From positions 39 to 64,038 of the forward strand of contig VBMB01000135.1 of the NCBI GenBank assembly GCA_005878525.1: a stretch of 64,000 bases of DNA, read 5' to 3'. Below, in pieces: positions 5,675 to 62,201 of this stretch. The notes below the pieces were generated by a model. It did no database searches, was not told where the DNA came from, and worked only from the letters and a program-made list of their open reading frames with translations. The position numbers were made by a program, and so were the translations under genes. The DNA comes from Methanobacteriota archaeon (GTDB taxonomy: Archaea; Thermoplasmatota; Thermoplasmata; RBG-16-68-12). The stretch's first letter is position 1. The number at the start of each line of letters is the position of its first letter.

Positions 5675-5747
5675 AGTTACACCACCTCTCGCTGTGGCCT
5701 CGAGAGCCGCAACGGGGTTGAGTACTAGAGGGGAGTCAAAGAGTAGT

Positions 5748-6710: not shown

Positions 6711-6915
6711 AACGGTTTCGCTGCATGCTTCGCATCTTCTCCTTTTTATATAAATCGTAGAATGGACGAATTTTTGTCGCTTCGCTACTTTTAAGACCCC
6801 TTTTGACTATACAGAAAATAGGGAGGAAAGAAGTGGCCAAGAAAAAGAAGGGCAAGAAAAAGAAGAGATAGGCGCTTGCCCGGCCAGCCCTCGCGATGAT
6901 TTGTCGCTCGGCGAC

Positions 6916-7992
6916 TCATCGCGTCGCACCCTTTTCCCGTTTTTCATTCCTCTTATTCCTTTTCATCTCCCGGCCAATTCGATCTGCGATCTTCAGCGGT
7001 TCGGGATATCTGCGGAGGGTTGACGCGCGAACCACTTCGAGCGCGCGATCCAGAGAGATGCGGTGGCCGACGGAGACAAAGTTCGGCCGCTCGCAGCCCG
7101 GCGGAGTCCACGCGTATCCGCGGACCTGACCTCGGAATTCGATCGCCGTCACACCTGAGGGCGAATGGCCTCTCTTCGTCACACGACCAACCAGCGGGTG
7201 CTTCGCCACGCCGATCGTCGGAAGGTCGAGTCGTACTCCCACGTAGCACGCGATTCCGAAGAGAGCGGGATGCAGACGGCCGTGACCGTCAACGAGGAGG
7301 ACGTCCGGTCGCTGATTGAGGCGACGAACGGCTGCCTCGATTCCCGGAAACTCGCGATAAGCCAGGTATGTCGGGATATACGGAAAATCGACGTGATGCC
7401 TTACCGCGGCAATGTCGATTGGATTGAGATCCTTTAGGTCGACGCATGCGGCCACGACATACATCGCATCTCCGTCATAGCCTGCGTCGACGCCGGCGAT
7501 GCGTTCGAATTGTCGGCCCGTGTCCAGTTCGACGACGCGGTCGCTGAGCTTCCGTTGCTCGTCTCGGAGCGTGGTGAGAAGGCCGACGGGTTGCAACACG
7601 TCAAGGATGCGTCCCGATGAGACACGCCCACGCACTAGCTGGAAACCCTCTCGCTCGAGTTCCGATGATGCGGATACGAGAACCGGACGGCCATCCGCGC
7701 GGACGACGCGGTGGCTCCCCGCCGTGTCCGGATGAGTGTTCAACCATGTGGCCACCGATCGGGCCGCCCGAATGTCGCCCAACGCCCGCGCGATGGCTCC
7801 GCACGTCGCCACGCGGCCGGGTCCGACTTGATCGAGGCATTCTTGAAGAGCCTTCGAGAAATCGACGTCCACGCGCGCACAGGGACTTGCGTCCGCAATA
7901 CTCTTGCCATTTCCAGGATTCGCAACGGCAACCATTCCCGTCTCTCCGATTGCGCGGGAAGCCGCGAAAACCCTTTCTACGGCTCGTCCCAT
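6916..7992 (-). CDS. nfi: Endonuclease V fused to an N-terminal MGMT-like (Ada/Ogt C-terminal) domain; the position equivalent to the catalytic Cys of PCHRV is Ser (GSHRVV)
   Basis: EndoV motifs GVDAGYDGD, HPALFGIACYVG and PTIGVAKH. The N-terminus carries the MGMT HTH region (ATCGAIARALG) followed by SHRVV. Start set at MGRAVERV (ATG 7992..7990); the first about 95 codons of the listed ORF are low-complexity and overlap mtaD. Confidence 0.8.
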   Translation of the reverse strand: MGRAVERVFAASRAIGETGMVAVANPGNGKSIADASPCARVDVDFSKALQECLDQVGPGRVATCGAIARALGDIRAARSVATWLNTHPDTAGSHRVVRADGRPVLVSASSELEREGFQLVRGRVSSGRILDVLQPVGLLTTLRDEQRKLSDRVVELDTGRQFERIAGVDAGYDGDAMYVVAACVDLKDLNPIDIAAVRHHVDFPYIPTYLAYREFPGIEAAVRRLNQRPDVLLVDGHGRLHPALFGIACYVGVRLDLPTIGVAKHPLVGRVTKRGHSPSGVTAIEFRGQVRGYAWTPPGCERPNFVSVGHRISLDRALEVVRASTLRRYPEPLKIADRIGREMKRNKRNEKREKGATR

Positions 7993-8005
7993 CGACGGGC
8001 CACCG

Positions 8006-10591: not shown

Positions 10592-10636
10592 CGGCTCTCT
10601 CCTGTGACTCATCTTGTGGCCTGATTCTCACGACGG

Positions 10637-10644
10637 AGCTTTTA
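10637..10644 (+). promoter_or_regulatory. Putative TATA box (TTTTATGC) for KaiC-like gene 1
   Basis: AT-rich octamer about 45 bp upstream of ATG 10686; the spacing fits an archaeal BRE/TATA element. Confidence 0.3.
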
Positions 10645-10685
10645 TGCATTATGGGCCGGGTGGTCCGGCGCTCGGCAGGCTTTCA

Positions 10686-11771
10686 ATGGATCGCGTCAAG
10701 ACGGGCGTCGTAGGTCTCGACACGATGCTGACCGGCGGCCTGCTGCCTGCGCGACCGTACGTCGTCTCGGGCCCGACCGGGAGCGGCAAGACGATTCTGG
10801 CCCTCCACTTCCTCCTCGAAGGGCTCCGACAGCAGGAACCGTGTCTTCTGGTCACCCTCGATGAGCCGCCGATCGAGGTCAAGGCGAACATGGCCACGTT
10901 CGGGTGGAACCTGGACCGTCTCAAGATCCTCGATGCGACCCCGGACATCCGCGCGCACAAACGCCAGCGGTCCGTGATCGACGTCGGCACGTCCCTCGAC
11001 GTGCGGGACATGGAGGACGTCACGGAGATCCGCCAGTCCTCCCAGATCCGCGCCCTCGAGGTCACCGTGCACAGCGTACAGAAGATGATCAAACAGGAAT
11101 TCTTGCATCACCTCGAGCGGACGAAGCAGCGATACAAGCGCGTCGTCATCGATTCGATGACCGCGCTGAAGATGTTCGCGATGCAAGGCCAGGACAGCCG
11201 AATCCTGATCCAATCGTTCGTCCGGTTCCTCGCGGAACTGGAGGCGACGACCCTCATCATCTCGGAACGCCTCAACAAGAAGATCCTCGAGACGGAGTTC
11301 TTCCTCGCACGCGGCGAGGTACGGCTCCACAAGTGGATCGACGGAAGTGTGATCCGCCGCGCGATTTCGATCGACAAGTTCCGCGGTTCCTCGTTCGACG
11401 ATCGGATGCATCCAATCTCGATCGGGGACAACGGAATGGTCGTCTACCTGGACGCCCCCGCGCAGACGCGGGTGTCGAGCCCCGCTCCGAAGCCGGGTGA
11501 ATCGCTCCTCGAGACCCGGCTCATCGACGAGGTCTCGAACGTGATTGAGTCGATCATGCGTCACATCGAAGACGCCCATCGACGCCAGGTCCCGATCCGG
11601 GACATCGAGGTGTCGTTGTCTCGAGCAATGCTCGCCTTCCAACGCCGGAACTATCAGAAGGCGATGAAGCTCGCCCTCGCGTGCGACGCGGAAGTCCGAG
11701 AGCGCCTCGCGCAGGCTCCGCCTCCGCCGCCGACCTCGCAGCTGCCGCGTCCGCCCCAGGTGATCCGCTGA
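10686..11771 (+). CDS. KaiC-like RecA-superfamily ATPase (single domain with C-terminal extension)
   Basis: N-terminal IKTG..GLD..L.GG motif (VKTGVVGLDTMLTGG) and Walker A GPTGSGKT. Start set at MDRVKTG; the ATG at 10644 is an alternative. Confidence 0.85.
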   Translation: MDRVKTGVVGLDTMLTGGLLPARPYVVSGPTGSGKTILALHFLLEGLRQQEPCLLVTLDEPPIEVKANMATFGWNLDRLKILDATPDIRAHKRQRSVIDVGTSLDVRDMEDVTEIRQSSQIRALEVTVHSVQKMIKQEFLHHLERTKQRYKRVVIDSMTALKMFAMQGQDSRILIQSFVRFLAELEATTLIISERLNKKILETEFFLARGEVRLHKWIDGSVIRRAISIDKFRGSSFDDRMHPISIGDNGMVVYLDAPAQTRVSSPAPKPGESLLETRLIDEVSNVIESIMRHIEDAHRRQVPIRDIEVSLSRAMLAFQRRNYQKAMKLALACDAEVRERLAQAPPPPPTSQLPRPPQVIR

Positions 11772-12550
11772 CCGCCGCGGCCAAGATCCGGACCGGCATC
11801 CCGGGTCTCGACAAGATGCTGCACGGCGGCTACGTCCCGGGACGGCCGTACATCGTCTCGGGTCCTCCGGGCGCCGGCAAGACGATCCTCGCGATGCAGT
11901 TCCTGCGGGAGGGCCTGGAAGGCGGGGAGCGATGCCTGTTCGTGGCCCTCGAAGAGCCCCCGAACGAGCTGAAGATCAACATGCGCGGATTCCGCTGGAA
12001 CCTGGACGACCTCGACGTCCTCGACGCGAACTCCGATATCCGACGGTTCGAGCCCACGCCGATCCTCGAGATCTCCACGGAGGAAGAGCCCGCGAAGATG
12101 CGAGCGATCGGGGAGCGGATCCGGAAGACACCGGACTTCGAGAGCAAAGAAGTCACGGTCCACTCGTTGCAGCAACTGCTGAAGAACCTGTTCCTGAAGA
12201 GAAACTACGAGCGCGTCGTGATCGATTCGATGACGGCCCTCAAATATTTCTGCATGCGCGAGTTCGAGGAGACCGTCACGACGCAGTCGTTCATGCGATA
12301 CCTCGCGGAGTCGAAGGTCACTTCGCTGCTCACCCTCGAGCTCCCGGAGGAAGGCGAAGTCCCTCCGGAGGCGTTCCTGGCGCGCGGGGAGCTCCGCCTC
12401 CACAAACTCCGGGACGAGACGGGCATCAAGCGCTTCCTGTCCGTCGAGAAGTACAAAGGCTCGTCCCACGACGAGTCCGTGTATCCGTTCGAGATCACGA
12501 ACGCCGGGATCGTGATCAACATGGCCCCGATGGCCGCGACGGCCCACTGA
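11681..12550 (+). CDS. KaiC-like RecA-superfamily ATPase, tandem paralog
   Basis: IRTGIPGLDKMLHGG, Walker A GPPGAGKT, Walker B VVIDS. Only a GTG at 11681 is available upstream of the conserved N-terminal motif, which gives a 91-bp overlap with the upstream paralog; the start is uncertain. Confidence 0.8.
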   Translation: MRRGSPRAPRAGSASAADLAAAASAPGDPLTAAAKIRTGIPGLDKMLHGGYVPGRPYIVSGPPGAGKTILAMQFLREGLEGGERCLFVALEEPPNELKINMRGFRWNLDDLDVLDANSDIRRFEPTPILEISTEEEPAKMRAIGERIRKTPDFESKEVTVHSLQQLLKNLFLKRNYERVVIDSMTALKYFCMREFEETVTTQSFMRYLAESKVTSLLTLELPEEGEVPPEAFLARGELRLHKLRDETGIKRFLSVEKYKGSSHDESVYPFEITNAGIVINMAPMAATAH

Positions 12551-12627: not shown

Positions 12628-12679
12628 GGGCAAGATGGATTCGTCCGCCCGTCAGTCTCCATCGGGATGGGATGGCACA

Positions 12680-13816
12680 ATGAAATCACTTCTCAACGAA
12701 GCCCTGGCCCGGCACCAGGAAGCCGAGGCGAAGGAAGAGCGCGAGTCCGAGAAAGCCAAGGCCGTGGAAAAGAAGAAGAACGGCGACGACGAAGAGATCG
12801 AAAAGATTGTGGAGTCGATCAATGTCTCGATCAAGATCGTCGGCTGCGGCGGGGGCGGATCGAACACGATCAACCGATGCAGCGAGGCCGGGATCACGGG
12901 CGCGCAGCTGGCCGCCGTGAACACGGACGCCAAGCACCTGCTCTCCGTCCACGCGCCGAAGAAGATCCTCATCGGCAAGCGCCTCACGAAAGGCCTCGGT
13001 GCCGGAGCCCTCCCGGAGGTCGGCGAACAGGCCGCCCACGAGAACGAGGAAGAGATTCGAGACTTCCTCCGCGGTTCTCACGTCGTGTTCATCACCGCGG
13101 GCATGGGCGGCGGGACCGGGACCGGCTCCGCACAGTACGTCGCCCGCGTCGCGAAGGAGGAAGGCGCCCTCACGATGGGCGTCGTCACGATGCCCTTCAA
13201 GTCCGAAGGCCGCATCCGGATGGAGAACGCGGAGGCCGGCCTGGACAAGCTCCGCAAGTTCAGCGACACGACGATCGTCATCTACAACGACAAGCTCCTC
13301 GAGCTCGTGCCCCGACTGCCGATCAACGCCGCGTTCAAGGTCGCGGACGAAATCCTGATGCAGTCGATCAAAGGCATGACGGAGATCATCACGAAGCCCG
13401 GCCTCGTGAACCTCGACTACGCGGACCTCATGACGATCATGAAGGGCGGCGGGGTCGCGATGATCGGAATCGGCGAGAGCGAGGAAGAGCGGGACCGGAT
13501 CGACTACGCGATCAACGAGGCCCTGGAATCCCCGTTGCTCGGCGAGGTCGACCTGACCCACGCCCGCGGCGCCCTCGTGCGCGTCGTCGGCGGACCCGAC
13601 TTGACCGTGTCCGAGGCGGAGAAGGCCGCGGAGATTGTGGGCCAGAAGATCAACCCGCAGGCGCGGATCATCTGGGGTTGTTCCGTCGAGGACGACCTGC
13701 AGAACACGGTTCGCGTGCTCCTGGTGATCACGGGCGTCAAGTCGAAGTCGCTCCTCGGCAAGGACGTGTACACGGGCCTCGTCAAGACGTCCGCCGAAGT
13801 GGACGAAGTACACTGA
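12680..13816 (+). CDS. ftsZ: Cell division GTPase FtsZ
   Basis: Tubulin/FtsZ signature GGGTGTG and [11 protein letters not shown]. Start chosen at MKSLL (12680) because the in-frame ATG at 12635 lies only 8 bp downstream of the TATA box. Confidence 0.9.
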
Positions 13817-26191: not shown

Positions 26192-26551
26192 ATGGTCGAC
26201 ACGACCGCCCTCGAGTCCCTTCTCCACGAAGTCGAGCAGAACGAGGGTGTGCAGGAGGCGATGCTTGTTTCCCGGGCGGGAACGTATCTCGGGGGGAGCT
26301 TTCCCCGCGGCGTCCACGTGGATACCTTCGGGTCGATGTTCGCCGTCCTGGTCGGCTCCGCGATGACCATCACCGATGAAGCGAAGGATTCGCTCGAGTC
26401 CGTCGTGATCCATTCCAAGTCGAACAAGTACCTCATCGTCCACGCGGGCCGCAAGGCACTGCTCGTGATGCGCCTTCCCCCTTCCGCCGATCCACAAAAG
26501 ACGAAGACCGCGGTCGAGAAGTACATCCCGCGGATCGAGGAACATCTGTGA
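26192..26551 (+). CDS. Roadblock/LC7 (MglB-like) domain protein
   Basis: 119 aa with the typical Roadblock/LC7 secondary-structure pattern (A.LVSR.G...G). Confidence 0.7.
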   Translation: MVDTTALESLLHEVEQNEGVQEAMLVSRAGTYLGGSFPRGVHVDTFGSMFAVLVGSAMTITDEAKDSLESVVIHSKSNKYLIVHAGRKALLVMRLPPSADPQKTKTAVEKYIPRIEEHL

Positions 26552-45832: not shown

Positions 45833-46095
45833 GAATGGCGTGAACAATCCCGTATGGTCGCATGAGCGCGTATTTCAGAACTGCAGGCGACGGTGAAGTC
45901 ATTTGAGAGCTTTGAACTCATTCGTTGAAGCCTATGCTCTCTGCCTTGGGCTACCGCGTGCGTCTCGGTACGGTATACGTTATCAGCCTCGATTCCGGGG
46001 TCGGAATTCATTTAAAAAGCCGCAGGCATCGAATCGCGCATTCTACCCAGCGAGGGCCCGCCCTCCCGACAGAGGGACCGGCACCCAGGGGGAAC

Positions 46096-46992
46096 ATGAC
46101 CATGGCGGACATCGAGAAAGTGGCGAGCGGGATTCCCGGACTCGACGATCTCATCGAAGGCGGATTCTGGCCGAAGTCGACTGTCGTCATCCTGGGCTCG
46201 AGCGGGACGGGTAAGTCCACATTCGCGATCCAATTCCTGATGGAAGGCATCGAGCAAGGCGAGCAGGCGCTGTACGTCACCCTGGAGGAACCTCCGGAAC
46301 AGATCATGCGCGAGGCCGACCTGATGGGCTTCGACATGCGCAAGTACTACGAGAAGAGCCTCTTTTTCATCCATCTCAAAGGCCGCAATTTCAAGAAGAT
46401 GATCGAGGAGCAGCTGCCGCAACTCGTCAAGGCGCGCGCGGACTACAACATCAAGACGCGCGTCGTGATCGACCCAATGACGCCGGTCATTTGGGCGACC
46501 GCGGAGAAGCTCGAGCAACGCGAGTTGATCGGCAAGTTGTTCTACACGCTCAAGGAGCTCGGCGTCGTCCTGTGCACCGTCGAGGAGCACGCGAAGCCCG
46601 GGGAGACAATCGGCGAGGACGTGCTCCTGCCGATCTACCTGTCCGACGGCGCGATCCAGCTCGAGTACTATCCGATCGGCGGGGCGTTCAACCGGACCGT
46701 GAAACTCCTGAAGATGCGCGGCGTCCACCACGGCGAAGGCGTGTACCCGTACCTGTTCGCGCGCGGCGTGGGCATCGTGGTCCGCTCGAGTCCGACTCAG
46801 ATCCCCGAGGAGCAGAGCCGGAGCCACGTCAAGACGTTCGACGAGGCGATCAAGACCGCCGAGGCGATGAAGGCCCCTGCCCGCGTGATCGAACGGATCA
46901 AGCGGATGCAGAAGCACTGGGACTACGACTACTCGCCGGAAGAGGCCCTGCAGATCCTGTTCAGTTCGTACGGGTTGAAGCGGGGCGGATAG
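46096..46992 (+). CDS. KaiC-like RecA-superfamily ATPase with C-terminal extension
   Basis: SGIPGLDDLIEGG, Walker A GSSGTGKST, Walker B VVIDP. Start at the MTMADIEK ATG. Confidence 0.8.
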   Translation: MTMADIEKVASGIPGLDDLIEGGFWPKSTVVILGSSGTGKSTFAIQFLMEGIEQGEQALYVTLEEPPEQIMREADLMGFDMRKYYEKSLFFIHLKGRNFKKMIEEQLPQLVKARADYNIKTRVVIDPMTPVIWATAEKLEQRELIGKLFYTLKELGVVLCTVEEHAKPGETIGEDVLLPIYLSDGAIQLEYYPIGGAFNRTVKLLKMRGVHHGEGVYPYLFARGVGIVVRSSPTQIPEEQSRSHVKTFDEAIKTAEAMKAPARVIERIKRMQKHWDYDYSPEEALQILFSSYGLKRGG

Positions 46993-47781
46993 ATGCCCTA
47001 CGCGGGCCAAGTCGACAAGACGATGGGGGCCGACACGGTCGGCCACCTGAAGCATCTCTTGGAGACGGAGCTCAAGCGGGCGCGGGAGGAAAGCCACCTG
47101 GACATCGCGATGTTCCTCGGGGTGGATGGCCGGATTTTCTCCTCCTCAATCCCGAACCAGCTCGATCCCCGCGAGTACCGGCTGTTGAATCTCCTGAAGG
47201 GCAGCCTGGCGCACATCTGCAGCCAACTCAGTGGGCAGAACATGATGATGTCCGTCCAGCAGTTCGAGGCGGGCACGATCATCATCTCGGGCGTCGGAGA
47301 CCGGGCCTTCCTGGTCTTTCTCACCTCGAAACCGGTCGAGATCACGAAAATGCAAACGATCCTCGCGAACGTCATGAAGACCTCGATCGTCGTCCGCCAT
47401 CTGTTCGAATCGAAGCCGATCACCCCGGAGGTCCTCGCTTCATACGACGAAGCCGTTGCCGGAGAACTGAAGCGACTCACGCGAATCCTGTTCGTCGAGA
47501 AATTCGGGGAGACGAAGGAGTTCAAGAAGAACAAGGAGATCGCGCAATACCTTCAGTCCAAGCTTGCCGCCCTCGTGGGTCCCGGCCTGCTCCAGGAGAT
47601 CGTCACGATGGCGTACAACGAGGTCGGGACAACCGCGCCGTACATGACGTCCGCGCACTGGGAACGGTTCCTGACGATGCTGCTCGATCGTCTCCGGGAG
47701 ATCGAAGGGGACGCGGTCGCTGCGAAAGCGGAGAAGGAATGGCGCGCGCACCTGAAGCAGGTGCTCAGCTCGTTCGTGTGA
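46993..47781 (+). CDS. Roadblock/LC7-like N-terminal domain protein with alpha-helical C-terminal domain
   Basis: The DIAMFLGVDGRIFSS and AGTIIISGVGDRAFLVFLTSKP segments resemble the Roadblock/LC7 fold. Start abuts the KaiC-like stop. Confidence 0.55.
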   Translation: MPYAGQVDKTMGADTVGHLKHLLETELKRAREESHLDIAMFLGVDGRIFSSSIPNQLDPREYRLLNLLKGSLAHICSQLSGQNMMMSVQQFEAGTIIISGVGDRAFLVFLTSKPVEITKMQTILANVMKTSIVVRHLFESKPITPEVLASYDEAVAGELKRLTRILFVEKFGETKEFKKNKEIAQYLQSKLAALVGPGLLQEIVTMAYNEVGTTAPYMTSAHWERFLTMLLDRLREIEGDAVAAKAEKEWRAHLKQVLSSFV

Positions 47782-47803
47782 TGTCCATGGACGGAGGTCA
47801 CCT

Positions 47804-48424
47804 TTGATCGACGTCGCGCTCGCCTCTCTCATCGAGGACATGATCGAGAAGGCCGGGGCCGACGGCGTCGTCGAGTTCTGGCAGCGGGTCGGGGACAACC
47901 TCGCGAGCCGCATGGGGAAGGAGGCATACCTCGGGTGGACGTCGTTCAACGTCGCCGTGCGCGAGGCCCGGACGGCCTTCAGCATCGAAGGCGAGGTGAC
48001 GCCGCTCACGGACATGGCCATCACGGATGTCGACGGGGACGTGGTCGGCTACTTGTACGCGATGCGGCAGTGCTGCTACGTCCCGACGATCTTCCGCACC
48101 CGGTTCGCGGTCGGCCGGATGAGCCCGGCGGACCAGGCCGTGACGGACGAGTACAACGAGAACGTCCACAACATCGCGGTCTGCAACTTCTGCGTGTTCC
48201 ACGAGCGGTTCCGGGAGGAGATCGCGAAGAACATCTCGGTGGCCGGCAACTCGCTCGCGTGCTTCCTGCTCGCCACGCGCGGCTGGAGCGGGGAGACGAA
48301 GATCTCCTCGAAGAACGTGGCCCAGGTGAACATCAACGAGGACCACATGCGCGCCCTCCTGCGGAACTACGAATGCGTGTACGCGCTCGTCATGCGCGGG
48401 GCGCGGATCAAGGGAGAGCGCTGA
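47804..48424 (+). CDS. Conserved hypothetical Cys/His-containing protein, paralog A (possibly V4R-like)
   Basis: TTG start. Shares the LIEDMIEK.G..G.......NLASRM.KE.YL.W.SF and C.F..H.RFRE patterns with the downstream paralog. Confidence 0.5.
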   Translation: MIDVALASLIEDMIEKAGADGVVEFWQRVGDNLASRMGKEAYLGWTSFNVAVREARTAFSIEGEVTPLTDMAITDVDGDVVGYLYAMRQCCYVPTIFRTRFAVGRMSPADQAVTDEYNENVHNIAVCNFCVFHERFREEIAKNISVAGNSLACFLLATRGWSGETKISSKNVAQVNINEDHMRALLRNYECVYALVMRGARIKGER

Positions 48425-48425
48425 G

Positions 48426-49037
48426 ATGGCGTTCGAATCTCGGATCCCGGAGAGCAATCCGTTCGTCGAGATCGCGACGCACCTGTTCCTGGAGGACATC
48501 GCGACGAAGGTCGGCATCGCGGGGCTCAACAACTACCTCGTGTCCCTAGCGAAGAACCTCGCGGCCTCGATGCCGAAGGAGGAGTATGCGAGCTGGTCGG
48601 AGTTCCTCTCCGCCCTGTCGACGGGCCAGTCGATCCTCTCGACCTTCGAGGAAGTCCGTCCGATCACGGAGCACTGCATGTCCACGTTTCGGTCCCCGTT
48701 CGAGCGCGGTTGGCGGGAGTACGCGAAGCGCGTCGGGGCGTTCGCGCCGGTCCACCGGGAGGTGGCGCGATACTACAATCACAAGGTCCGGCCCACGGCC
48801 GTCACGTCGATGCACGTCGTCCTGCATACGTTCCGGGAGGCGGCAGCGGCCCGCGTCCACGTGGGCCACGACGGCGTCCGCTACGAGCCGGTCGCCTCGG
48901 CCTGGGTCGACGGGGAGGTCCAGCTCCCGGAGGGTCCAAACCTCGAGTCGCTGTTGAAGCGCGCCGGCATCTCCCGCACGAAACTCGGGATGTTGATGCG
49001 GAACCACTCGGACGTCTGGCTCATCGAGCCCGCGTGA
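48426..49037 (+). CDS. Conserved hypothetical Cys/His-containing protein, paralog B
   Basis: FLEDIATKVG..G.......NLAASMPKEEYASWSEF and VVLHTFREA match paralog A; ATG 2 bp after the paralog A stop. Confidence 0.5.
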   Translation: MAFESRIPESNPFVEIATHLFLEDIATKVGIAGLNNYLVSLAKNLAASMPKEEYASWSEFLSALSTGQSILSTFEEVRPITEHCMSTFRSPFERGWREYAKRVGAFAPVHREVARYYNHKVRPTAVTSMHVVLHTFREAAAARVHVGHDGVRYEPVASAWVDGEVQLPEGPNLESLLKRAGISRTKLGMLMRNHSDVWLIEPA

Positions 49038-49760
49038 CTAGGCGCGCTTCCTCCGTCGGAGAGCGATGGTCAGGAACATGACGGGCACGAAGACGCCGAT
49101 CCCGATCAGGACCGTCCAGGCCGTACTCAGCGGCGCCGTGCCGCGGTAGAACAGGCTCGTGACGACCGTCTCGCCTTTCGCAGGGTCGATGATGCCGTTC
49201 CCATCCAGGTCGGCTTCCACGCGGATCTGATGGGTCCCCGGTTGGAGTCCGGAAGGCAGGTAGTTGAACGTCTCCGTGACTTGGGCTCCAGGATTGAGTC
49301 GCGCGATCTTCCGGGTGCCGGCCAGCGCGCCGTCGACGTAGAACCGTACGGTTACGTTCACCGCCGCAGTAGTCCCGTCGTTGCGGAACGTGGCGCTCAG
49401 GACGATGGGCGTGATGATGCTGATCGGCTTCTCCGCGGTCGTATTCTCGTACGTCGAGCCGGCTAGGGACGCGATCTGGACCACGAGGCTCACCGTCCCC
49501 TCGGCAGACGGCGCGGTGACGTTCAAGGTGAAGCTGGTCCGGTTGCCGGTCGTCGTGCTCGGATTCGCGGCGTTCGGTAGGCCGCCCGCGATGTTGGCCC
49601 CGGTAAGGTGCCATCGGACCGTGTACGTGACCGCCACGGTCGGCCCGCCGTTGATTGTGAGGTTGTACGCGCTCACCTGACTCGGTGCCAAGGCGTTCGG
49701 TCCCGTGATCGTCCCGAAGATGGGCCCCTGGGCGGCCGCGGGCGCGAGGACGAGGGCGAA
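49038..49760 (-). CDS. CARDB-like cell-surface protein with C-terminal TM anchor plus RRRKRA; a frameshift disrupts the 5' end
   Basis: A signal peptide (AGPIALAILAAVFALVLAPAAAQG) is encoded in frame upstream of the listed TTG but has no canonical start. ATG 49754..49752 (MNDAK) is offset by +1. Confidence 0.5.
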   Translation of the reverse strand, partial: FALVLAPAAAQGPIFGTITGPNALAPSQVSAYNLTINGGPTVAVTYTVRWHLTGANIAGGLPNAANPSTTTGNRTSFTLNVTAPSAEGTVSLVVQIASLAGSTYENTTAEKPISIITPIVLSATFRNDGTTAAVNVTVRFYVDGALAGTRKIARLNPGAQVTETFNYLPSGLQPGTHQIRVEADLDGNGIIDPAKGETVVTSLFYRGTAPLSTAWTVLIGIGVFVPVMFLTIALRRRKRA

Positions 49761-49808
49761 GACCGCCGCGAGGATCGCCAGGGCGATCGGTCCAGCGTTT
49801 CGCGTCGT

Positions 49809-52800
49809 TCATCGCCTCCGACGCGCGAGGACGAGCCCGACCCCGACGGCCGCGATCGCGCCGACGACGACGGCGATGAGCGGCAGGTTCAGCGGCGCCG
49901 ACGGCGTGATGTCGGGCCCGCTCACGGTCGCGCCAGGGGAAGCCAGGACCGGGAGTTGAAGGGTGAACGTCTTCGACGCCGAGACAGACATCGAGTCCTG
50001 CACCGTCACCGCGAGGGCGACAGACGCCCCGCTCGGCCCGCCGGTGGACTGGGCCCGTAGGCCCACCTTGACCGTGCTCGTGGCCTCGACGGTGAGGTTC
50101 GCGAGAGTCGCTCCGACCGCAGATCCTCCGCTGCGGACGAGGCTCACGGACCAGCCGAACGCCGCGAGGTCGTCGGGATTCGTGATCGCCAAGGTGACTG
50201 TCTCGCGCGCATTGCCGGAGTTCGTCACGAGGAGTGTGTAGTTCAGGATTCGCCCGTCGAAGACAGGCGCCGCGGTGTCGAGGGCGAGGCTCAGGCCGCG
50301 CACGCGCAGGATGTCCACCTGGACGTCGACGCTCCCGAGGTTCGTGCCGTCCGTCTCCGACGTCGCGACGATTTTGATGGTGCCGTGATCGACGAGCGCG
50401 TTCGCCGGGCTCTGGATCGTGACCTGGACGGAGGCGCTGCTCGCGGCGTTGCCGAAGCTCAGGGAGACCGAGCCCGGCGCGAACGTGAACTGCCAATCCC
50501 CCGGCTGCCCCGCGAAGGCGAAATTCTCGGCGACGTTCCCCGTGTTGCGTGCGACGATCGCATAGGACACGGAGTCGCCGGCCACGATCGTCCGGCGCTG
50601 GGCCGGATCCCACGTCAGCGTAGCGGACCGGCTGACGACCTTGGTGAGCGCGACGTTCGCAATCGTGTCGGCGCTGAGGACGACGGACAGCGTCGCGCGG
50701 TAGACGACCGGAAGGCCGTTCTCCGTCGCCGACGTCGACGCCGAGATCGTGTACACCCCCGCGGGGAGGAGCACTTGGAACGCCCCGCTCGCGTCCGAAG
50801 TCGTGTCGAGTTCCGCCCCGGACTGGATCGTGACGGGGATCGACACCGGTGCACCCGAGGGATTCCGGACGGTGCCGGACAAGAGGAATCCTTGCGCCAG
50901 GGGCAGGTCCCGCGCGAACGACGCCGCGTGGGGCACCGTGATGCGCGCGAGGAAGACGGAGCTTCCGAACGACCGCGTCACGTAGACGTCGTACGTTCCC
51001 GGTGCCAGGGGGACGGTATAGGAACCGCTCGAGTCCGAGGTCGCTTGGGCCGAGATCGCGCCGCCCCCGCGACCGGTGAGCGTGATGATTGCGGAGATCC
51101 CCGTGCCGGCGAGGGTCGCCATGCCCGAGACCGTCGTGTTGTCGAAGGTCCGCGTGACCGCCAGGTCCAGGCTCAACGACGTTTGGCCTGGGGTGACGGT
51201 CGCGGTGCCGGCGAAGGAATATCGATAGAAACGGGACACGCCGCCTTCCGTGGCGTTGTTCGTCCCCGTCAACGTCACAGTGTAGTTCCCCGGGACGAGG
51301 AACGAGGTGTATGCGCCGAAGGCATCCGTCGACACGGATAGCGAACCGCCCTCGTTGCGGACGAACGACACGGGCATGGGTCCGGGGACCGCGACGCCGT
51401 TGACGAGGGCCCTCCCGGAGACCGTCGTCGCCTTCGTGAGCGGGAAGCTGAGGTTCGTCGCGGACGGAATCGCCGCCATCGACATGAACGCATACTCATC
51501 GGCTCCGATCATCTCGCTTCCTGTGACGGCGTACGACCCGGGGATCAGGTAGACCTCGAATCCAGTCGCCGTCGCGTTCACCGCCCGGCGGTCCGGGCCA
51601 TCGAACGTGAGGGCCGCGGCCCGGGCCGTCCTGTTCAGCGTCAAGTTCCCGACGACGAGGTTCCGCACGACGATGTTGATGTCGTACGGCAGCGTGCCTT
51701 CGCCGACCGCCGCGACGATCCGGTCCGTGCCTTGGTTCTGGTACCGCATGGCCCGCGTCGACGAGACGTTCTCGTCCACGACGAGCGCGTACGTCCCCGG
51801 GACGAGGCCGAAACCGTAGCCGCCGTTCGAATCCGTCTGGGTCGCGCTGCCGACCGCGCCGTTCCCGAGGGGAACCGCGGTGACGGTCACCGGGTGGCTG
51901 AGGACCGCCGATCCGTTCACGAGGACGCTCCCTTGGACTTGGACGGGGACCGGGGTGAGGGCGATCGGCATCAGCGTACGGAGTTGAATCGGGGACGAGG
52001 ATCCGATGGGTCGGTCGGCAAACCCGGCCGCCGTCACGAGTCCTGAGTACGTCCGGTTGGCAAACAGCGGGATCCGGAACTCGCCGGTCCCGTTCGTCGT
52101 GAAGACGATGTGTGCGGCGCGGTCGTCCGTCAGGCCGACGCGAGCCCCGGCGATCGCCTCGCCCGGATTGACCCCGCTATTCCGGTTCACGTCGCGGTAG
52201 ACCGTCCATCCGACCGTTTCCGATGTGGCGAGGAGCGCGATGTTGAGGCGAGTCGTCCCCGCGAAGGTGACGCTCGCGAAGTAGGCGCCTGCCTGGTTGA
52301 ACGCCTCGAGGTCGTACGTCCCGACCGGGAGGAATGTGAAGTACCCTCCGGCCGTGTCGGTCTGGAGCCACACCTGGCCGGCCGCGTTCGCGAGGGCCAC
52401 CGTCGCCCGCGGATTCCGGACCGCGGGGTTCGCATCGCTCACGGTGCCGCTCAGCCGGACGCCTTGCACGAACATCGCGTCGAACGATGTCGTGCTCCCA
52501 CGAGCCACGACGACCCGACCCAACGCCGCGTACAAGAGATTCGACGCATAGAAGCGTCCGCTGACGAACCACTCCCCCGCCGGGAGTCGGATTGAGTACC
52601 GCGCGTTCGCATCGGACGTCGTCTGGCGGACCGTCCGCGGCTCCGATGCGGACTGGAAGCTCAGGGTCGCGAACGGCTGCGCCGTGCCGAACAACGTTGT
52701 GGTGCCGGAGACCGTCCCCACGGGCAGAAGCGTGATGTTCAGCGACTGGTCCGCATTCGCGGCGCGGATGCGCGTCGGGATCGACGCGAGGTCTCCATCC

Positions 52801-55800
52801 GTCGCCGTGAGCGTGTAGTTCCCCGCAAGGAGCGGACGCACTAGGAACGAGCCGTCTGCTGCCGAAGTGACCGGGATGATCGTGGAGTTCGTTTCATCGA
52901 GGAATTCCATCTGAGCCAACGGCTCGATCCCGCCAAGACTCGAGACGGTGAATCCGCGGACCGCTGTATACGGCACGGCGATCCCTTGGGTCGCGTCGGT
53001 CTGCGTGATCGTCAGGGTCGCGGCGGTCAACGTGCGTCCGTTCAACCCGATCGACACGCGATACGAGCCTTCGGGCAGACCCGCGACCGTGTAGGTCCCG
53101 TCGGTCGCCGACGTCGCGGAGCGGCTGTAGCCGAACAATGCATGCGTGAGCGTGATGGTGGCGCCGGGCGCGGAGATGTCCGCCGCCCCGAACGAGCCGT
53201 CTCGGTTCAGGTCGAAGAAGACGGTGCCTTGGGCGGTGTGTGACGCCACGTGGAAGTCCCGCGTGATCATCCAGTCGGGAACCCCGTCCCCGTTTGCGTC
53301 GGCGGGGGCACGGTTTGCTTGGTCGATCGTCACCGGGAGGGTCACGGACGCCAGGGACCGCGCGCCGACCAGGGTCGTCCGGGTCAAGTTGCCGATCGAC
53401 GCGGTGATCGTCACGTTCCCGAAGGGGACGATCGCGGTGTAATGGCCTTGCGCGTCGCTCTGCGTGACGTAGTGCGGCGTGCCGAGTTCGTCCGTCACCG
53501 TGACCCAGACGTGGGGGAGCGGCGTCGAGCCAGCATAGACGGTCCCGCTCACGACCGCGCCGTCGTAGTATCGCAGGAACACGACCCCGTTCGCGACCGT
53601 GGACTGCGTGCTCAGGTCGACGACTCCTTTGAGGGTCCCGGCCTGGATGGCGGACTGCATCCGCTGCGCTTGGTCGAAGTTCATCGCCCGCCACGCGGTC
53701 GTGTGGTTCGCCGGATCGGGGAACGGATTGTAGTACGCGGTCCGGTACACGACCCGCCAGTGGGTAAGGTTCCATGCGGGGACCGGCGGGTTGGCCTGAA
53801 GGGCCTGGCTGAAGCCCGGGACGCCGGTGTCGGTCGAATTGAGGTCCTTCGGCGAATAGCCGATGTAGGCCCGGTAGAACATCGAGTTGTAGAACGCGGC
53901 TTGGTACTGGATCGTCTGGCTCTGGATCTGGTCTCCTGGGGCCACGAACTGGATCGGGATGTTCGAGCCGCGGTTCGTCGTCGCGAGGATCTGGAAGAAT
54001 TCGAACGGCAGGACGCGGCCGTCCGGAAGGTTCAGGACGCGGTGGTCCGACAGCTTCGCGGGCGCATAGAAGATCCCCGTGTTCGAGGCGCTGATCGGGA
54101 ACAGCCGCGCGTCGACCGCGAAGTAGCCGATGTCCCAGCCCGTCGCGGCTCGGACGTCGTGGTACAACGAGACGATGCGGTCCTCGCTCATCCGGCGGGT
54201 GAGGAGGCTCGTCAGGAAAATGAACTGGGCGTTGAGCGGTTGGAGATCCGGCGCCCACAATCCGAACGTGACCGGGTCGGCGAGGACGACCGAGATGTAA
54301 TCCGGGGGTCGCGCGAAGACGCTCCGGATCGTCTCGACAGGAAGGCCCGCGTCCAGGAGGACCGCCTTCACCGCGGGCCGGAAGTCCCGATGGTGCGTGA
54401 CGAAGTCCCCTTCCAAGAGTCGAATCGTGAGGAGGGCGATCCCGGCCGTTTCGTTCTGCGCCGTGATGAACTGGCCGGCGATCGCCACGCCGTCCTGGAA
54501 GTTGTCTGCCACGGTCGGGTGGGCTCCGCGGTCGACGGCTTCGAAGCCATAGTCCCACCACGAGAGGTACGCCGGGCGGAGCTCCGGAGGCGTATTCGAA
54601 TCCTGGGTCGCGAACCACTGCCAAGCTGCCGGATAGTAGTCGGTCGGCTTGGGGACGCTGTAGCCAAACGCCCCGAAATAGAACGGCGACCCGCTGCTCG
54701 GACTATAGCCCGGGGACCGCAGGAACGAGGGCAGGAGATTCGCGACCTGCTGATCGTACTGGGTCTTGAGCTCGAAGGGGATCGAGGCGTCGACGGCCCA
54801 CCAGACGTTGGGGAGGACGACCAGGAACACGATTCCGAGGACCACGAGGACGTGACGCGGCTTGAGCGATTTTCGGACCGCATTCCGCCAGCTGCCGGCC
54901 GCGAGCGAACGGTAGGTGCGCCGCATCGTCGTGAAGTCTGCGCGGACGAGGACCTGATCGATCGCGTACCCCGCGCTGATCGCGAACGCGGGCGAGGCGT
55001 TGAAGATGAACCGCGCGGCCGTGATCGCCATGAAGATCGCGGCGAAGGCCCAGACGACGACGAGGCTGTACGCGGGCTCCCGGCGCCGCGGGATCTGCCA
55101 GAGCAGGTACGCGACCGCGAGGAGGCTCATGCCGAACGTGAACAGGCCGAAGGACAGGATCATCTGCGACATGCCGGGGGACTGGTCCTCCGCGATGGTC
55201 GTGACGACCTTCGTCTGGACAAAGTATCCCGCGCCGGTGAAGAACGCGCTCGCCAGCGTCGGGTTGACGAGGACGCCGATCCCGAGGCCGACGGCTCCGG
55301 CGACCAGGGTGCTCGGGATCACGAGCGTCCACGGGTAGTCCCGGGTGACCGTGAAGGCGAGGCCGAGCACGAACGCCGCGAAGAACAGGTAGGCTGGCAC
55401 GTCGAACCACACGCGGATCTGCGCGCGGACGAAGTACCACTGAAAGGCAAGGGCGAGGGGGGTCGCGAGGGCGAGGGTGAACAGGATCCACGTCCCCATC
55501 GTGTCGTCGTTCCGGAAGCGGGCGAGGAACAGCTCGACCGCGAACCAGACGATCAGGATCACGCTGACATAGGCCCAGCCTTGCCAAGCGAGGGCGATGA
55601 CCGCGACGCACAGCCCGGCGAGGAGTGCGTACAGGACGCTGTTCCGGTTCTCCCGGAAAAAGCCGCGCAGGCCCGACGTGATCGAATCCCGTCGAAACCA
55701 ATTCTCGACCCATCGCTTGCGGTTCATCGTCTTCAGCGCGCGGAGGAAGAAATAGAACGTCGAGACGACGAAGAACAGCGTGAAGGCGTCGTGGTCCGCA

Positions 55801-56312
55801 TCCGTCGAGGCGCTCCGCTGGAGATGCCCGACACTGATCGCGAGCAACAGCGCGGCGACGAGCCCGGCCCGCCGGCCGAACGCCTCCTTGGCGAGGGCGT
55901 ACGTCGGGAAGACCGTCAGGGCGCCGAAGAGGCCCGTGCTCAGCAAGAACGTGAACATGACCGCCTTCCAGGCGTCCCCGAACAACGGCGCGAAGAGCCG
56001 ACCGACGAGGAGGGAGAACCACGGGAAGAGCGGCGGTCGCGGATTCGGCAGGGTGAACGGATAGCTCAGCATCGGGTCCGTGCCCAGGTCCTTGCCGGTC
56101 TGGAAGGAATAGCATAAGGCGCGGTGCCAGTAGTACGAGTCCGAGCCGCCGGACACGGGCAGCGTGTAGATCGTGTCGCAGTTCACGTTCGGTTGGTTGA
56201 AGGCGAGGCCGGCGACGAAGTAGACGCGGAGGAACAGGGCGACGCCGAAGATCAACACGAGGACCGCGGCGGTCCGCCAGTGCGTGCGGAGCCAGCCTTT
56301 CCCATCGTCCAA
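49809..56312 (-). CDS. aglB: Oligosaccharyltransferase AglB/STT3 fused to an approximately 1300-aa sequon-rich beta-repeat surface region with C-terminal TM anchor plus RRRR
   Basis: 13 TM N-terminal domain; the WWDYG motif is present; this is followed by a long Thr/Ser/Gly/Val-rich repeat region with dozens of N-x-S/T sites; it ends with IAVVVGAIAAVGVGLVLARRRR. Confidence 0.8.
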   Translation of the reverse strand: MDDGKGWLRTHWRTAAVLVLIFGVALFLRVYFVAGLAFNQPNVNCDTIYTLPVSGGSDSYYWHRALCYSFQTGKDLGTDPMLSYPFTLPNPRPPLFPWFSLLVGRLFAPLFGDAWKAVMFTFLLSTGLFGALTVFPTYALAKEAFGRRAGLVAALLLAISVGHLQRSASTDADHDAFTLFFVVSTFYFFLRALKTMNRKRWVENWFRRDSITSGLRGFFRENRNSVLYALLAGLCVAVIALAWQGWAYVSVILIVWFAVELFLARFRNDDTMGTWILFTLALATPLALAFQWYFVRAQIRVWFDVPAYLFFAAFVLGLAFTVTRDYPWTLVIPSTLVAGAVGLGIGVLVNPTLASAFFTGAGYFVQTKVVTTIAEDQSPGMSQMILSFGLFTFGMSLLAVAYLLWQIPRRREPAYSLVVVWAFAAIFMAITAARFIFNASPAFAISAGYAIDQVLVRADFTTMRRTYRSLAAGSWRNAVRKSLKPRHVLVVLGIVFLVVLPNVWWAVDASIPFELKTQYDQQVANLLPSFLRSPGYSPSSGSPFYFGAFGYSVPKPTDYYPAAWQWFATQDSNTPPELRPAYLSWWDYGFEAVDRGAHPTVADNFQDGVAIAGQFITAQNETAGIALLTIRLLEGDFVTHHRDFRPAVKAVLLDAGLPVETIRSVFARPPDYISVVLADPVTFGLWAPDLQPLNAQFIFLTSLLTRRMSEDRIVSLYHDVRAATGWDIGYFAVDARLFPISASNTGIFYAPAKLSDHRVLNLPDGRVLPFEFFQILATTNRGSNIPIQFVAPGDQIQSQTIQYQAAFYNSMFYRAYIGYSPKDLNSTDTGVPGFSQALQANPPVPAWNLTHWRVVYRTAYYNPFPDPANHTTAWRAMNFDQAQRMQSAIQAGTLKGVVDLSTQSTVANGVVFLRYYDGAVVSGTVYAGSTPLPHVWVTVTDELGTPHYVTQSDAQGHYTAIVPFGNVTITASIGNLTRTTLVGARSLASVTLPVTIDQANRAPADANGDGVPDWMITRDFHVASHTAQGTVFFDLNRDGSFGAADISAPGATITLTHALFGYSRSATSATDGTYTVAGLPEGSYRVSIGLNGRTLTAATLTITQTDATQGIAVPYTAVRGFTVSSLGGIEPLAQMEFLDETNSTIIPVTSAADGSFLVRPLLAGNYTLTATDGDLASIPTRIRAANADQSLNITLLPVGTVSGTTTLFGTAQPFATLSFQSASEPRTVRQTTSDANARYSIRLPAGEWFVSGRFYASNLLYAALGRVVVARGSTTSFDAMFVQGVRLSGTVSDANPAVRNPRATVALANAAGQVWLQTDTAGGYFTFLPVGTYDLEAFNQAGAYFASVTFAGTTRLNIALLATSETVGWTVYRDVNRNSGVNPGEAIAGARVGLTDDRAAHIVFTTNGTGEFRIPLFANRTYSGLVTAAGFADRPIGSSSPIQLRTLMPIALTPVPVQVQGSVLVNGSAVLSHPVTVTAVPLGNGAVGSATQTDSNGGYGFGLVPGTYALVVDENVSSTRAMRYQNQGTDRIVAAVGEGTLPYDINIVVRNLVVGNLTLNRTARAAALTFDGPDRRAVNATATGFEVYLIPGSYAVTGSEMIGADEYAFMSMAAIPSATNLSFPLTKATTVSGRALVNGVAVPGPMPVSFVRNEGGSLSVSTDAFGAYTSFLVPGNYTVTLTGTNNATEGGVSRFYRYSFAGTATVTPGQTSLSLDLAVTRTFDNTTVSGMATLAGTGISAIITLTGRGGGAISAQATSDSSGSYTVPLAPGTYDVYVTRSFGSSVFLARITVPHAASFARDLPLAQGFLLSGTVRNPSGAPVSIPVTIQSGAELDTTSDASGAFQVLLPAGVYTISASTSATENGLPVVYRATLSVVLSADTIANVALTKVVSRSATLTWDPAQRRTIVAGDSVSYAIVARNTGNVAENFAFAGQPGDWQFTFAPGSVSLSFGNAASSASVQVTIQSPANALVDHGTIKIVATSETDGTNLGSVDVQVDILRVRGLSLALDTAAPVFDGRILNYTLLVTNSGNARETVTLAITNPDDLAAFGWSVSLVRSGGSAVGATLANLTVEATSTVKVGLRAQSTGGPSGASVALAVTVQDSMSVSASKTFTLQLPVLASPGATVSGPDITPSAPLNLPLIAVVVGAIAAVGVGLVLARRRR

Positions 56313-60045: not shown

Positions 60046-60768
60046 GGTTCTGTCCTCCTGCGGCTTGCGCCGCCATCTCGGCACGGGGGAACCGACGCTC
60101 TTAAACGTGTCGTGGTTAATATTCGAAGTTGAGAACGAACGGATCGGGTACGCGCGGGAAATGGAAAGGAAAGAGAAAAGGGAAGAAGGTTGGGGGCTGG
60201 ATGCTGAGCCTAGCCCAGGGCGTGTGCGTACAGGATTCCCTGGGAGTCGGCGATCTGCACGCCGTACCCGCTCGGGTACGTGGTCGTGCTGATCAGGAGC
60301 CGGTCTCCGACGACGACGGTCGTGCCTCCGGTCCCGACGAACTGGGCCCTGTTGGCGTTCCACGAGGCCGACGTCAAAGACGAGAGGGCGATCGGGTTGA
60401 GCGCCGTCAGGCCGCCGGTTGTCGTGATCGTCAGCTTAACGGCCGACGTCGTCAGGCCACTCGGTGTCGTCGTGATCAACAGCGTCCAGTTCGTTCCGTC
60501 TCCAGACGTGCCGATATTGACACCCATCACACGAGGTCCTTGACCCGTGGGCGTCAGCAGGCCGGATACCATCACGTACAGCACCGCGGCCAGCACGACC
60601 GTAATCGCGACCATCAGGATGGTCGCAATCACAGGCGACACGGCTGCCTCATCCTTTCGGATGATGCTCTTCATGGTTCTGTCCTCCTGCGGCTTGCGCC
60701 GCCATCTCGGCACGGGGGAACCGACGCTCTTAAACGTGTCGTGGTTAATATTCGAAGTTGAGAACGAG
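59587..60768. repeat. Tandem direct duplication (2 x about 552 bp, 78-bp spacer) covering the pilin gene plus about 95 bp of its upstream region
   Basis: 59587..60138 versus 60216..60768 are about 95% identical, including the non-coding upstream segment. Confidence 0.7.
60210..60674 (-). CDS. Archaeal type IV pilin-like protein, copy B (about 93% identical to copy A)
   Basis: Same class III signal peptide; about 10 substitutions in the mature part. Confidence 0.7.
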   Translation of the reverse strand: MKSIIRKDEAAVSPVIATILMVAITVVLAAVLYVMVSGLLTPTGQGPRVMGVNIGTSGDGTNWTLLITTTPSGLTTSAVKLTITTTGGLTALNPIALSSLTSASWNANRAQFVGTGGTTVVVGDRLLISTTTYPSGYGVQIADSQGILYAHALG

Positions 60769-60850
60769 TTCATAAGAGCTAGCGCCGCCAGAGGAAAGTG
60801 CCTCACTGCGGAGGGCGTCCGACGCGGGCGAGACTGACGCCATCGGCGGC

Positions 60851-61426
60851 TCAGACCCCGAGTTCGAGGGCTTCATCGGACACGAGCACGAGCATGTTCC
60901 GGATCTCCTCCGTCTCGTATTCCTGCATCGAGATGATGACGGTGTAGGCGCCGCGGGCGCGCAGGTTGTTCACCAGGATGTGGAGGAACTCGCTCAGGAT
61001 CTTCGTGTTGTTATGGATCGCGAGGCTGTTGATCGAGTCCAGCACGACGAGGGCGTTCCGGTCCGGGTTCTTGCGGAGGAGGAACTCGACCTTCAGCATG
61101 ATGTTCTCGAGCATCGTCGGACTCTCGACGACGATCGAGTGGGGATGGCGCTTCGCCTGGGACATCATGATCTGCGTGATGCAGTCGACGAACCAGATGT
61201 GCTCCACCGGGATCTCGAGGGCCTCCATCGCGTTCAGGATGCTCTGGCTCGGGATCGTCGACGTCACGTAGACGACCTCGAGGTCCTTCTTCGTCGCGAA
61301 CCGGTCGATCAAGCCTTGGATCGCGTCGAAATATTGATCCGCTTTCAGGTGAAGCGCGACGGCGGACGCGACCGGCAAGGCGGAAAGCTTCTCCGAGACC
61401 TCGGCCGGGATGCTCTGTTCAGCCAC
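60851..61426 (-). CDS. RecA/KaiC-fold protein lacking a P-loop (degenerate ATPase-like partner)
   Basis: VVYVTSTIPSQSI occupies the Walker A position without GxxGxGKT; a Walker B-like ALVVLDSINSLA is retained. Overlaps the upstream KaiC-like gene by 8 nt. Confidence 0.5.
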   Translation of the reverse strand: MAEQSIPAEVSEKLSALPVASAVALHLKADQYFDAIQGLIDRFATKKDLEVVYVTSTIPSQSILNAMEALEIPVEHIWFVDCITQIMMSQAKRHPHSIVVESPTMLENIMLKVEFLLRKNPDRNALVVLDSINSLAIHNNTKILSEFLHILVNNLRARGAYTVIISMQEYETEEIRNMLVLVSDEALELGV

Positions 61427-62201
61427 TTCCGGTCACGCTCCCGCCTTTCAGCAACGGCACGAGCAACACGCCGGACGTCGTGAGGTCGAGGACGTACTTC
61501 GCTCGACTGTGGGTCGTGCCCCGCATCTTGACGACCTGCAACGTCCGGAGGAGATCGCCGCGACGCTCGAGGTTCCCCGTCACGATCACGCCGTCGGCGA
61601 GGGCTTCCTCGACCCCCCAGCGGGAATAGCCTTCCTCCGTGGAACGGATCTCCGACACGAGAAGCGAGGTGCATCCCTTCGCGCTCAGGACCGTCCCGAG
61701 GCGGAGCAGGAAGTCCCGGATCCGCTCCTGGTCCTTGATCCGGTAGCAGACGGACGTGACGGAATCGAGGACGAGCCGGCGGATCTTCTGCTCTTCAACG
61801 ATGGAGGCGATGCGGCTGGCGAGGAGGCGGGCCTCCTTGAAGTCCATGTCTTCCTTATCGATGCCGAGCTCCTCGTAGATCTTCGGCATGTCGACGAACT
61901 GGAGCTTCCCCTGCTTCGCGAGACGGTCGTCGAAGAAGTCGAACGGGATGACGTTCTTGAGGAGCTTGTCGGTCGGCTCCGTGACGCTCAGGTAGAGGCT
62001 GTTCTCGCCCTCGAGCGCGCCGCGGATCAGGAACTCGATACAGATCGAGGTCTTCCCGGTGCCGACGGAACCGGAAATCAGGACGGTGTTCCCGCGCGGG
62101 ATGCCTCCATTCAGAATATGATCGATCGCATCGATGCCGGTGACGCATCGCTCACGCTCGCCGTCGTCGCGCTCCATCGTGGGCATCGATTCAGGCAACA
62201 A
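61419..62201 (-). CDS. KaiC-like RecA-superfamily ATPase
   Basis: VTGIDAIDHILNGG, Walker A GSVGTGKTS, Walker B LVLDS. The start could be any of the three Met in the first nine codons (62201, 62186, 62177). Confidence 0.8.
   Translation of the reverse strand: MLPESMPTMERDDGERERCVTGIDAIDHILNGGIPRGNTVLISGSVGTGKTSICIEFLIRGALEGENSLYLSVTEPTDKLLKNVIPFDFFDDRLAKQGKLQFVDMPKIYEELGIDKEDMDFKEARLLASRIASIVEEQKIRRLVLDSVTSVCYRIKDQERIRDFLLRLGTVLSAKGCTSLLVSEIRSTEEGYSRWGVEEALADGVIVTGNLERRGDLLRTLQVVKMRGTTHSRAKYVLDLTTSGVLLVPLLKGGSVTGSG

Follow-up and report, generated by a model that had tools for sequence, protein, structure and literature searches.

The four-gene operon at positions 46096-49037 of a 64,000-nt stretch of the Thermoplasmatota contig VBMB01000135.1 (the whole stretch is hereafter the window) raises the question of what a KaiC-family ATPase does beside a Roadblock-like protein and two paralogous proteins that match no curated family. 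An earlier note on this DNA had proposed an uncharacterised signalling module of an ATPase and its regulators. Our analysis supported that idea, in that no well-characterised enzyme family was matched and the arrangement proved strongly conserved. We read the operon (g1 to g4; Table 1) as a three-part nucleotide-dependent regulatory module of the Roadblock/V4R/small-GTPase-like kind that is built around a KaiC-type ATPase, and we give this reading a probability of roughly 45%.

The four genes and their products

The g1 protein matched the KaiC family model PF06745 with 152.6 bits (cut-off, 26.6 bits; E = 1.4e-44) over profile positions 1-228 of 231, and the earlier assignment of the first gene as KaiC-like was thereby confirmed. 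It fell far short of the cut-off set for each NCBIfam KaiC equivalog, circadian KaiC and ArlH included. Against the circadian KaiC models NF006799 and TIGR02655 it reached 119.5 bits with 408 required and 80.3 with 546 required, respectively, and its 298 aa form one domain, while a circadian KaiC is a double-domain protein. Alignment of 70 distinct orthologs indicated that the Walker A motif GSSGTGKST, the LEE motif and the Walker B motif VVIDP are invariant; the longer segments TLEEP and VVIDPMTP vary little or not at all, the C-terminus bears a conserved tail of about 65 residues, and 39% of all positions are invariant. A Pfam match to Ras was noise (E = 0.27), and the PADLOC models gave a weak P-loop match to mad8 alone (E = 2e-6). 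The intact ATPase motifs suggest that this single-domain KaiC homolog is catalytically competent; it is presumably a hexamer.

The second gene had been described as a Roadblock/LC7-like protein. This description held by fold and by a single BLAST link to a PF03259-bearing protein, but not by the Pfam Roadblock model, as PF03259 gave no match to g2 at E<=1. The Pfam, NCBIfam and PADLOC libraries contained no usable match, and the profile of the g2 alignment returned nothing meaningful from the PDB sequences. Fold comparison gave the α-β-β-α-β-β-β-α succession of a Roadblock/LC7 domain, which is followed by a C-terminal helical bundle. Among orthologs, 12% of the g2 positions are invariant.

The paralogy of g3 and g4 was evident both from BLASTP (24% identity, E = 1e-14) and from hhalign comparison of the two families (probability 99.7%, E = 5e-26). 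The homolog alignment of g3 showed that C90, C127, C130, H133 and C191 are invariant, a putative metal site, and that many polar residues are invariant too. By alignment, g4 lacks all of the Cys/His ligands of g3 as well as its β-hairpin insert. Invariant positions make up 40% of g3 and 19% of g4. A block C.F.H.RFRE, said earlier to be common to both proteins, is thus partly shared: g4 reads HVVLHTFRE and is without the Cys and His ligands that are invariant in g3.

Neither g3 nor g4 had a usable match in Pfam, NCBIfam or PADLOC, and a search of the PDB sequences with the g3 alignment profile gave nothing meaningful. The structure model of g3 had a predicted local distance difference test score (pLDDT) of 73.6; the other four models were poorer. 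In the structure search the g3 model matched exclusively the V4R/Bet3(TRAPPC3)/BcsD/H-NOX fold group, to which all of the top 50 Foldseek matches belonged, led by PoxR at E = 2e-3, with template modelling (TM) scores of 0.41-0.46. Two independent structure searches agreed on a two-layer α/β fold with an N-terminal helical pair, similar to PoxR and Bet3. The set of structural neighbours is the one published for Thor-TRAPPC3 (PMC10933270). Judged from the modelled structure, g3 and g4 belong to the V4R/Bet3 fold superfamily, as an unnamed family. The earlier view that the paralogs belong to no family that can be named was therefore correct as far as curated families go, but with a V4R superfamily fold they are not of a wholly unknown kind.

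The open reading frame (ORF) list placed all four genes on the plus strand, with 298, 262, 206 and 203 codons, and the same four genes were called independently on six soil-metagenome contigs encoding an identical g2 protein. The stop-to-start packing noted before was reproduced at both junctions: the TAG stop of g1 abuts the ATG of g2 (46992/46993), and a 1-nt spacer separates the stop of g3 from the ATG of g4 (48424/48426). A 22-nt spacer containing GGAGGT follows g2; the TTG start of g3 agrees with the start position of its homologs (MLDVAL). A candidate promoter element, ATTTAAAAAG, lies about 80 nt 5' of g1, inside a 390-nt gap 3' of a DNA methyltransferase gene. Because the genes downstream of g4 are convergent, the unit ends at 49037. 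The third-position GC content (GC3) of g3 is 0.97, the maximum in the window, and that of g4 is 0.92, compared with about 0.8-0.88 for most genes; these extreme values may come from high expression or strong codon selection. The convergent genes occupy 49038-56312 on the minus strand, where a giant 2167-aa STT3/AglB-like oligosaccharyltransferase with many CarboxypepD_reg-like repeats adjoins a 217-aa CARDB-domain protein.

Table 1. Positions of the operon and its associated sequence elements in the window
Feature	Position	Strand	Remark
TATA-box-like ATTTAAAAAG	46010..46019	+	candidate archaeal promoter element, read from sequence
g1, single-domain KaiC-family RecA-fold ATPase, 298 aa	46096..46992	+	PF06745 match
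g2, Roadblock/LC7-fold domain and C-terminal helical bundle, 262 aa	46993..47781	+	
Roadblock/LC7-fold domain of g2	about 47041..47409	+	aa 17-139
C-terminal helical bundle of g2	about 47425..47769	+	aa 145-259
GGAGGT, Shine-Dalgarno-like motif	47793..47798	+	from sequence; 5 nt 5' of the g3 TTG
g3, predicted V4R/Bet3-fold protein, unnamed family, 206 aa	47804..48424	+	putative metal site; TTG start
g4, g3 paralog, probably degenerate partner, 203 aa	48426..49037	+	BLASTP, hhalign

Conservation and distant relatives of the operon

We scanned one genome per species and obtained 131 loci, of which 80 were fetched; these came from Thermoplasmata, Methanomassiliicoccales, DHVE2/Aciduliprofundum and Proteinoplasmatales SG8-5. 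In every one of the 54 loci that had 5 kb or more of sequence upstream, the genes for KaiC, g2 and g3 were colinear, so the arrangement is not due to chance, and the neighbourhood conservation that the earlier note had proposed as a check was found. The compact form seen in the window occurred in 20 of the 54 loci; an extra gene lay between g2 and g3 in 34, and a V4R gene lay upstream in 32. Among the matches listed, all named g3 homologs were from Thermoplasmata/Thermoplasmatota (some are titled 'Methanobacteriota archaeon' at NCBI), and the g3/g1 locus is near-universal and apparently single across the phylum. No GTPase was found in the operon or within 10 kb of it when the 80 loci were searched with the cluster proteins. 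Flanking genes vary by lineage; Orc1/Cdc6 lies upstream of the locus in SG8-5.

A ten-gene cluster is present in most Thermoplasmatota lineages, and the operon of the window is a reduced version of it. The order in this cluster is a 100-aa protein (A100), an HVO_A0114 winged helix-turn-helix (wHTH) protein, a wHTH-PRTase_assc protein, a V4R+wHTH protein, KaiC, g2, a coiled-coil protein of 400-950 aa with a C-terminal wHTH (protein G), g3, g4 and a 185-aa protein (J185). Protein G, represented by 5168-7999 of locus L007 and its orthologs, sits between g2 and g3 and has a Lys-rich N-terminal tail in SG8-5; its hhalign comparison with all other cluster families gave weak wHTH-type matches only. 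The six extra genes (A100, HVO_A0114 wHTH, C172, V4R, G and J185) were not found in the window.

A combined g3+g4 profile hidden Markov model (HMM), run exhaustively against 1.84 billion representatives, yielded just 114 proteins, many of them fragments, from archaea (Asgard lineages included) and bacteria. One candidate from this search, P0465, was discarded as a FIVAR-repeat protein. Full-length distant members carry the signature CPF ... YN ... PFCxxHQxxR ... AC[KR] ... CxY, whose four Cys and one His are putative metal ligands. The signature CPF...PFCxxHQ..R...C.Y is retained in three fusions, in which the g3/g4-family domain is joined to a KaiC domain (P0440), to an Arf-like GTPase (P0466) and to a wHTH domain (P0456). 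In two proteins of 492-510 aa from Hodarchaeales/Thorarchaeota (P0444 and P0463), a g3/g4-like domain is C-terminal to a region of about 300 residues that starts with a degenerate P-loop-like motif, LLLLGD. Pfam gave no Roadblock, longin or other match in the N-terminal and middle regions of the Asgard and Arf-fusion proteins. At one locus (L094, 1443-4827) the P0463 gene is convergent with a single gene that encodes TrmB-HTH (HTH, helix-turn-helix) together with a Ras-like GTPase.

Distant members have Roadblock genes as neighbours on four unrelated contigs. Two of these also contain small GTPases and one contains KaiC and V4R, and on one of the four the distant members form a tandem paralog pair. 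The pair is found on L099, where the order is Roadblock, two tandem family paralogs (29% identity, E = 5e-31), Roadblock and an Arf/Ras-like GTPase. On L095 a Roadblock gene abuts the family member, and on L091 a bacterial PATAN-Roadblock gene lies 5' of it. The metagenomic operon L097 (1126-5576) encodes KaiC, a Ras/Arf-like GTPase fused to a Walker-A-less KaiC domain, Roadblock, a bona fide V4R protein and the family member. It also encodes two small unknown proteins and holds both classes of nucleoside triphosphatase (NTPase) in one module. Fusions and neighbourhoods together therefore indicate that the family has repeatedly been coupled to Roadblock and to an NTPase from one class or the other, and that its members tend to be paired. 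The proposal that KaiC takes the place of the NTPase in a Roadblock/V4R-type module was strengthened by the predicted V4R/Bet3 fold of g3 and g4 and by these relatives, which have Roadblock and small-GTPase genes as neighbours, or KaiC or an Arf-like GTPase as a fusion partner.

Four more KaiC-like genes and a standalone Roadblock gene had been reported in the window, and all five were present. Two tandem KaiC-family genes lie on the plus strand (10614-11771 and 11681-12550; PF06745, E about 1e-41 to 1e-43 each). An FtsZ gene is situated directly 3' of this pair (12635-13816, plus strand), and a functional link between KaiC and FtsZ is possible on the basis of this order. On the minus strand are a KaiC gene at 61419-62201 and a short KaiC-like gene at 60851-61426, which has a partial PF06745 match and is probably inactivated. 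An archaeal type IV pilin gene (60210-60806, minus strand) stands in a row with these two; an association of KaiC with type IV pili has been published for archaea (PMC4858521), and the row in the window agrees with it. The standalone Roadblock/LC7 gene (26192-26551, plus strand) matched PF03259 with E = 8.5e-8. It lies among housekeeping genes (DHBP synthase, cytidylyltransferase, a PHP-domain protein and MetRS) with no NTPase gene adjacent. The suggestion that the organism has expanded the four-gene system was not borne out, as the other KaiC genes stand in different contexts, with FtsZ and with type IV pilin.

A proposed mechanism and competing explanations

From the gene content, folds and neighbourhoods we infer the physical contacts, the heterodimer, its metal, the signal and the output of the module as follows. 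On the input side, g3 and g4 would form a Bet3/V4R-like heterodimer in which g3 carries the Cys/His metal site and g4 is the degenerate partner, and the signal sensed by this dimer would be a small ligand, a metal or the redox state. Dimerisation via the N-terminal helices, Zn binding by Cys residues and enclosed ligand cavities are features of V4R and TRAPPC3 proteins (PMC10933270), and the redox-sensitive DNA binding of MsvR is mediated by V4R cysteines (PMC3729527). As the adaptor, g2 would dimerise via its Roadblock domain and bridge the sensor pair to the ATPase; Roadblock proteins are regulators of NTPases or platforms for them (PMC4316618, PMC3747258). The switch would be the ATP-hydrolysis or autophosphorylation state of g1, a member of the archaeal KaiC-like ATPases, whose partners are mostly unknown (PMC4858521). 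In most Thermoplasmatota, the output is probably the winged-helix DNA-binding proteins of the same cluster. Since the winged-helix genes are absent from the locus in the window's lineage, the output there would be encoded elsewhere or have been lost.

Several results weigh against this reading. The Pfam V4R model (PF02830) matched neither g3 nor g4 nor six distant members, and when the g3 and g4 families were compared by hhalign with the V4R protein encoded in the ten-gene cluster, the probability was <1%. V4R membership by sequence was rejected on these grounds, and we therefore claim membership of the fold superfamily alone. The Cys spacing of g3 (C..CxxCxxH..C) is unlike that of canonical V4R proteins, and none of the genes in the four-gene form is an obvious output. 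The conservation of g3, with its many invariant charged residues, also exceeds that of typical ligand sensors and would equally fit an enzyme or a structural role with multiple partners. In a rival reading the operon is a cellular-organisation module, in which a scaffold of the Roadblock and Bet3-like proteins would position or time a KaiC motor or hub in housekeeping rather than in environmental sensing. Division, chromosome handling and envelope biogenesis would be examples, comparable with MglA/MglB and the Ragulator/TRAPP platforms. We consider this rather unlikely. The near-universal, apparently single locus and the very high conservation of g3 and g1 speak for it, as do the GC3 of g3, which hints at high expression, and the Lys-rich N-terminus of the long coiled-coil+wHTH protein in the ten-gene form; moreover, this pair of folds also makes up the TRAPP and Ragulator platforms of eukaryotes (PMC3747258, PMC10933270). 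However, the locus has no consistent link to a cytoskeletal, membrane or division gene, its flanks differ by lineage, and the domain fusions to HTH regulators fit signalling better.

It is improbable that g3 is a metal-dependent enzyme, for instance a C-S bond hydrolase like ATC hydrolase or an Fe-S protein, with g4 as a non-catalytic partner and with KaiC and Roadblock regulating or chaperoning it. Although the invariant Cys/His cluster and the many invariant polar residues of g3 are consistent with catalysis, and V4R-type Cys clusters resemble the ATC hydrolase domain (PMC5847659), neither PF14196 nor any enzyme family in Pfam and NCBIfam gave a match at E<=1. The fold neighbours of g3 are sensors and scaffolds rather than enzymes, the family's domain recurs in fusions to NTPases and HTH domains and beside Roadblock genes, as is typical of regulatory domains, and g4 is conserved without any of the ligands. 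Very improbable is an accessory role in DNA repair or recombination, in which g1, as a KaiC-family ATPase, and the winged-helix proteins of the ten-gene form would work on DNA; the archaeal RadA-paralog/aRadC proteins offer a comparison. KaiC belongs to the RecA/RadA superfamily, g1 has weak matches to RadA, RadB and DnaB, and the ten-gene form includes several wHTH proteins, in SG8-5 with Orc1/Cdc6 upstream. Nevertheless, the RadA and RadB scores are far under the cut-offs, the Cdc6 linkage is not conserved elsewhere, the operon of the window's lineage contains no DNA-binding gene, and the Roadblock/V4R partners and GTPase-containing relatives point to signalling. A defence system was rejected, given that g2, g3 and g4 had no PADLOC match and that the distribution is vertical, near-universal and highly conserved.

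Comparison with known systems

MglA/MglB-type and conservon (CvnA-D/Mfp) modules consist of a small Ras-like GTPase and a Roadblock/LC7 regulator. The regulatory module that we propose differs from both: the operon contains neither a GTPase nor a histidine kinase, its NTPase is a RecA-fold KaiC homolog, g2 has an extra helical domain of about 115 residues, and two V4R-like proteins belong to the unit. In its proposed way of working the operon resembles the MglA/MglB-type, conservon and Ragulator/TRAPP systems, but because it has no GTPase and no kinase it is not a member of them.

As in cyanobacterial KaiABC, g1 combines a KaiC-family fold with a catalytic glutamate pair; unlike that system, it has one domain instead of two, and the operon is without KaiA and KaiB. 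With the archaeal KaiC-like hubs (ArlH, GvpD and CirA) it shares a single-domain KaiC homolog accompanied by putative input and adaptor proteins, whereas in this operon those partners are one Roadblock protein and a pair of V4R-like proteins. In the 2017 mBio survey by Makarova, Galperin and Koonin, the KaiC partners are reportedly KaiB-like, MEDS and DEATH-like proteins. Within the literature that could be searched, we found no description of a KaiC-Roadblock-V4R-like neighbourhood in Thermoplasmatota; a mention in the supplement of the 2017 KaiC survey is possible. The operon fits the general proposal that archaeal KaiC-like ATPases act as signalling hubs, and it gives an archaeal KaiC a defined set of partners, shared across the phylum, that is directly testable in vitro.

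In their predicted fold, g3 and g4 fall into the same group as the V4R sensors (the phenol sensors PoxR/DmpR/MopR, MsvR and MJ1460) and eukaryotic and Asgard TRAPPC3 (Bet3). By analogy, the putative Cys-based metal site of g3 would be expected to tether the sheet to a helix, as in PoxR and Thor-TRAPPC3 (PMC10933270). The paired paralogs recall Bet3-family heterodimers, and P0456, in which the domain is fused to an HTH, resembles MsvR with its HTH+V4R architecture (PMC3729527). The differences lie in the ligand spacing (CPF..PFCxxHQ..ACK..CxY in distant members) and in the extra β-hairpin of g3. With their relatives, g3 and g4 define an unnamed domain family of predicted V4R/Bet3 fold, which escapes the models of Pfam and NCBIfam and is consistently linked to Roadblock and to KaiC or small GTPases.

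A bolder and rather doubtful possibility is that g2, g3 and g4 together make up a prokaryotic TRAPP/Ragulator-like platform, which consists of a Roadblock dimer and a Bet3-like heterodimer and has a RecA-fold KaiC ATPase as its target in place of a small GTPase, with g3 and g4 as an unnamed V4R/Bet3 branch that partners either class of NTPase. If this were true, the combination of Roadblock and Bet3 would be an NTPase-agnostic regulatory chassis older than its GTPase role in eukaryotes. Should the complex form as proposed, a platform of the eukaryotic TRAPP/Ragulator type could serve the other class of NTPase, which would bear on the origin of GTPase-regulating platforms.

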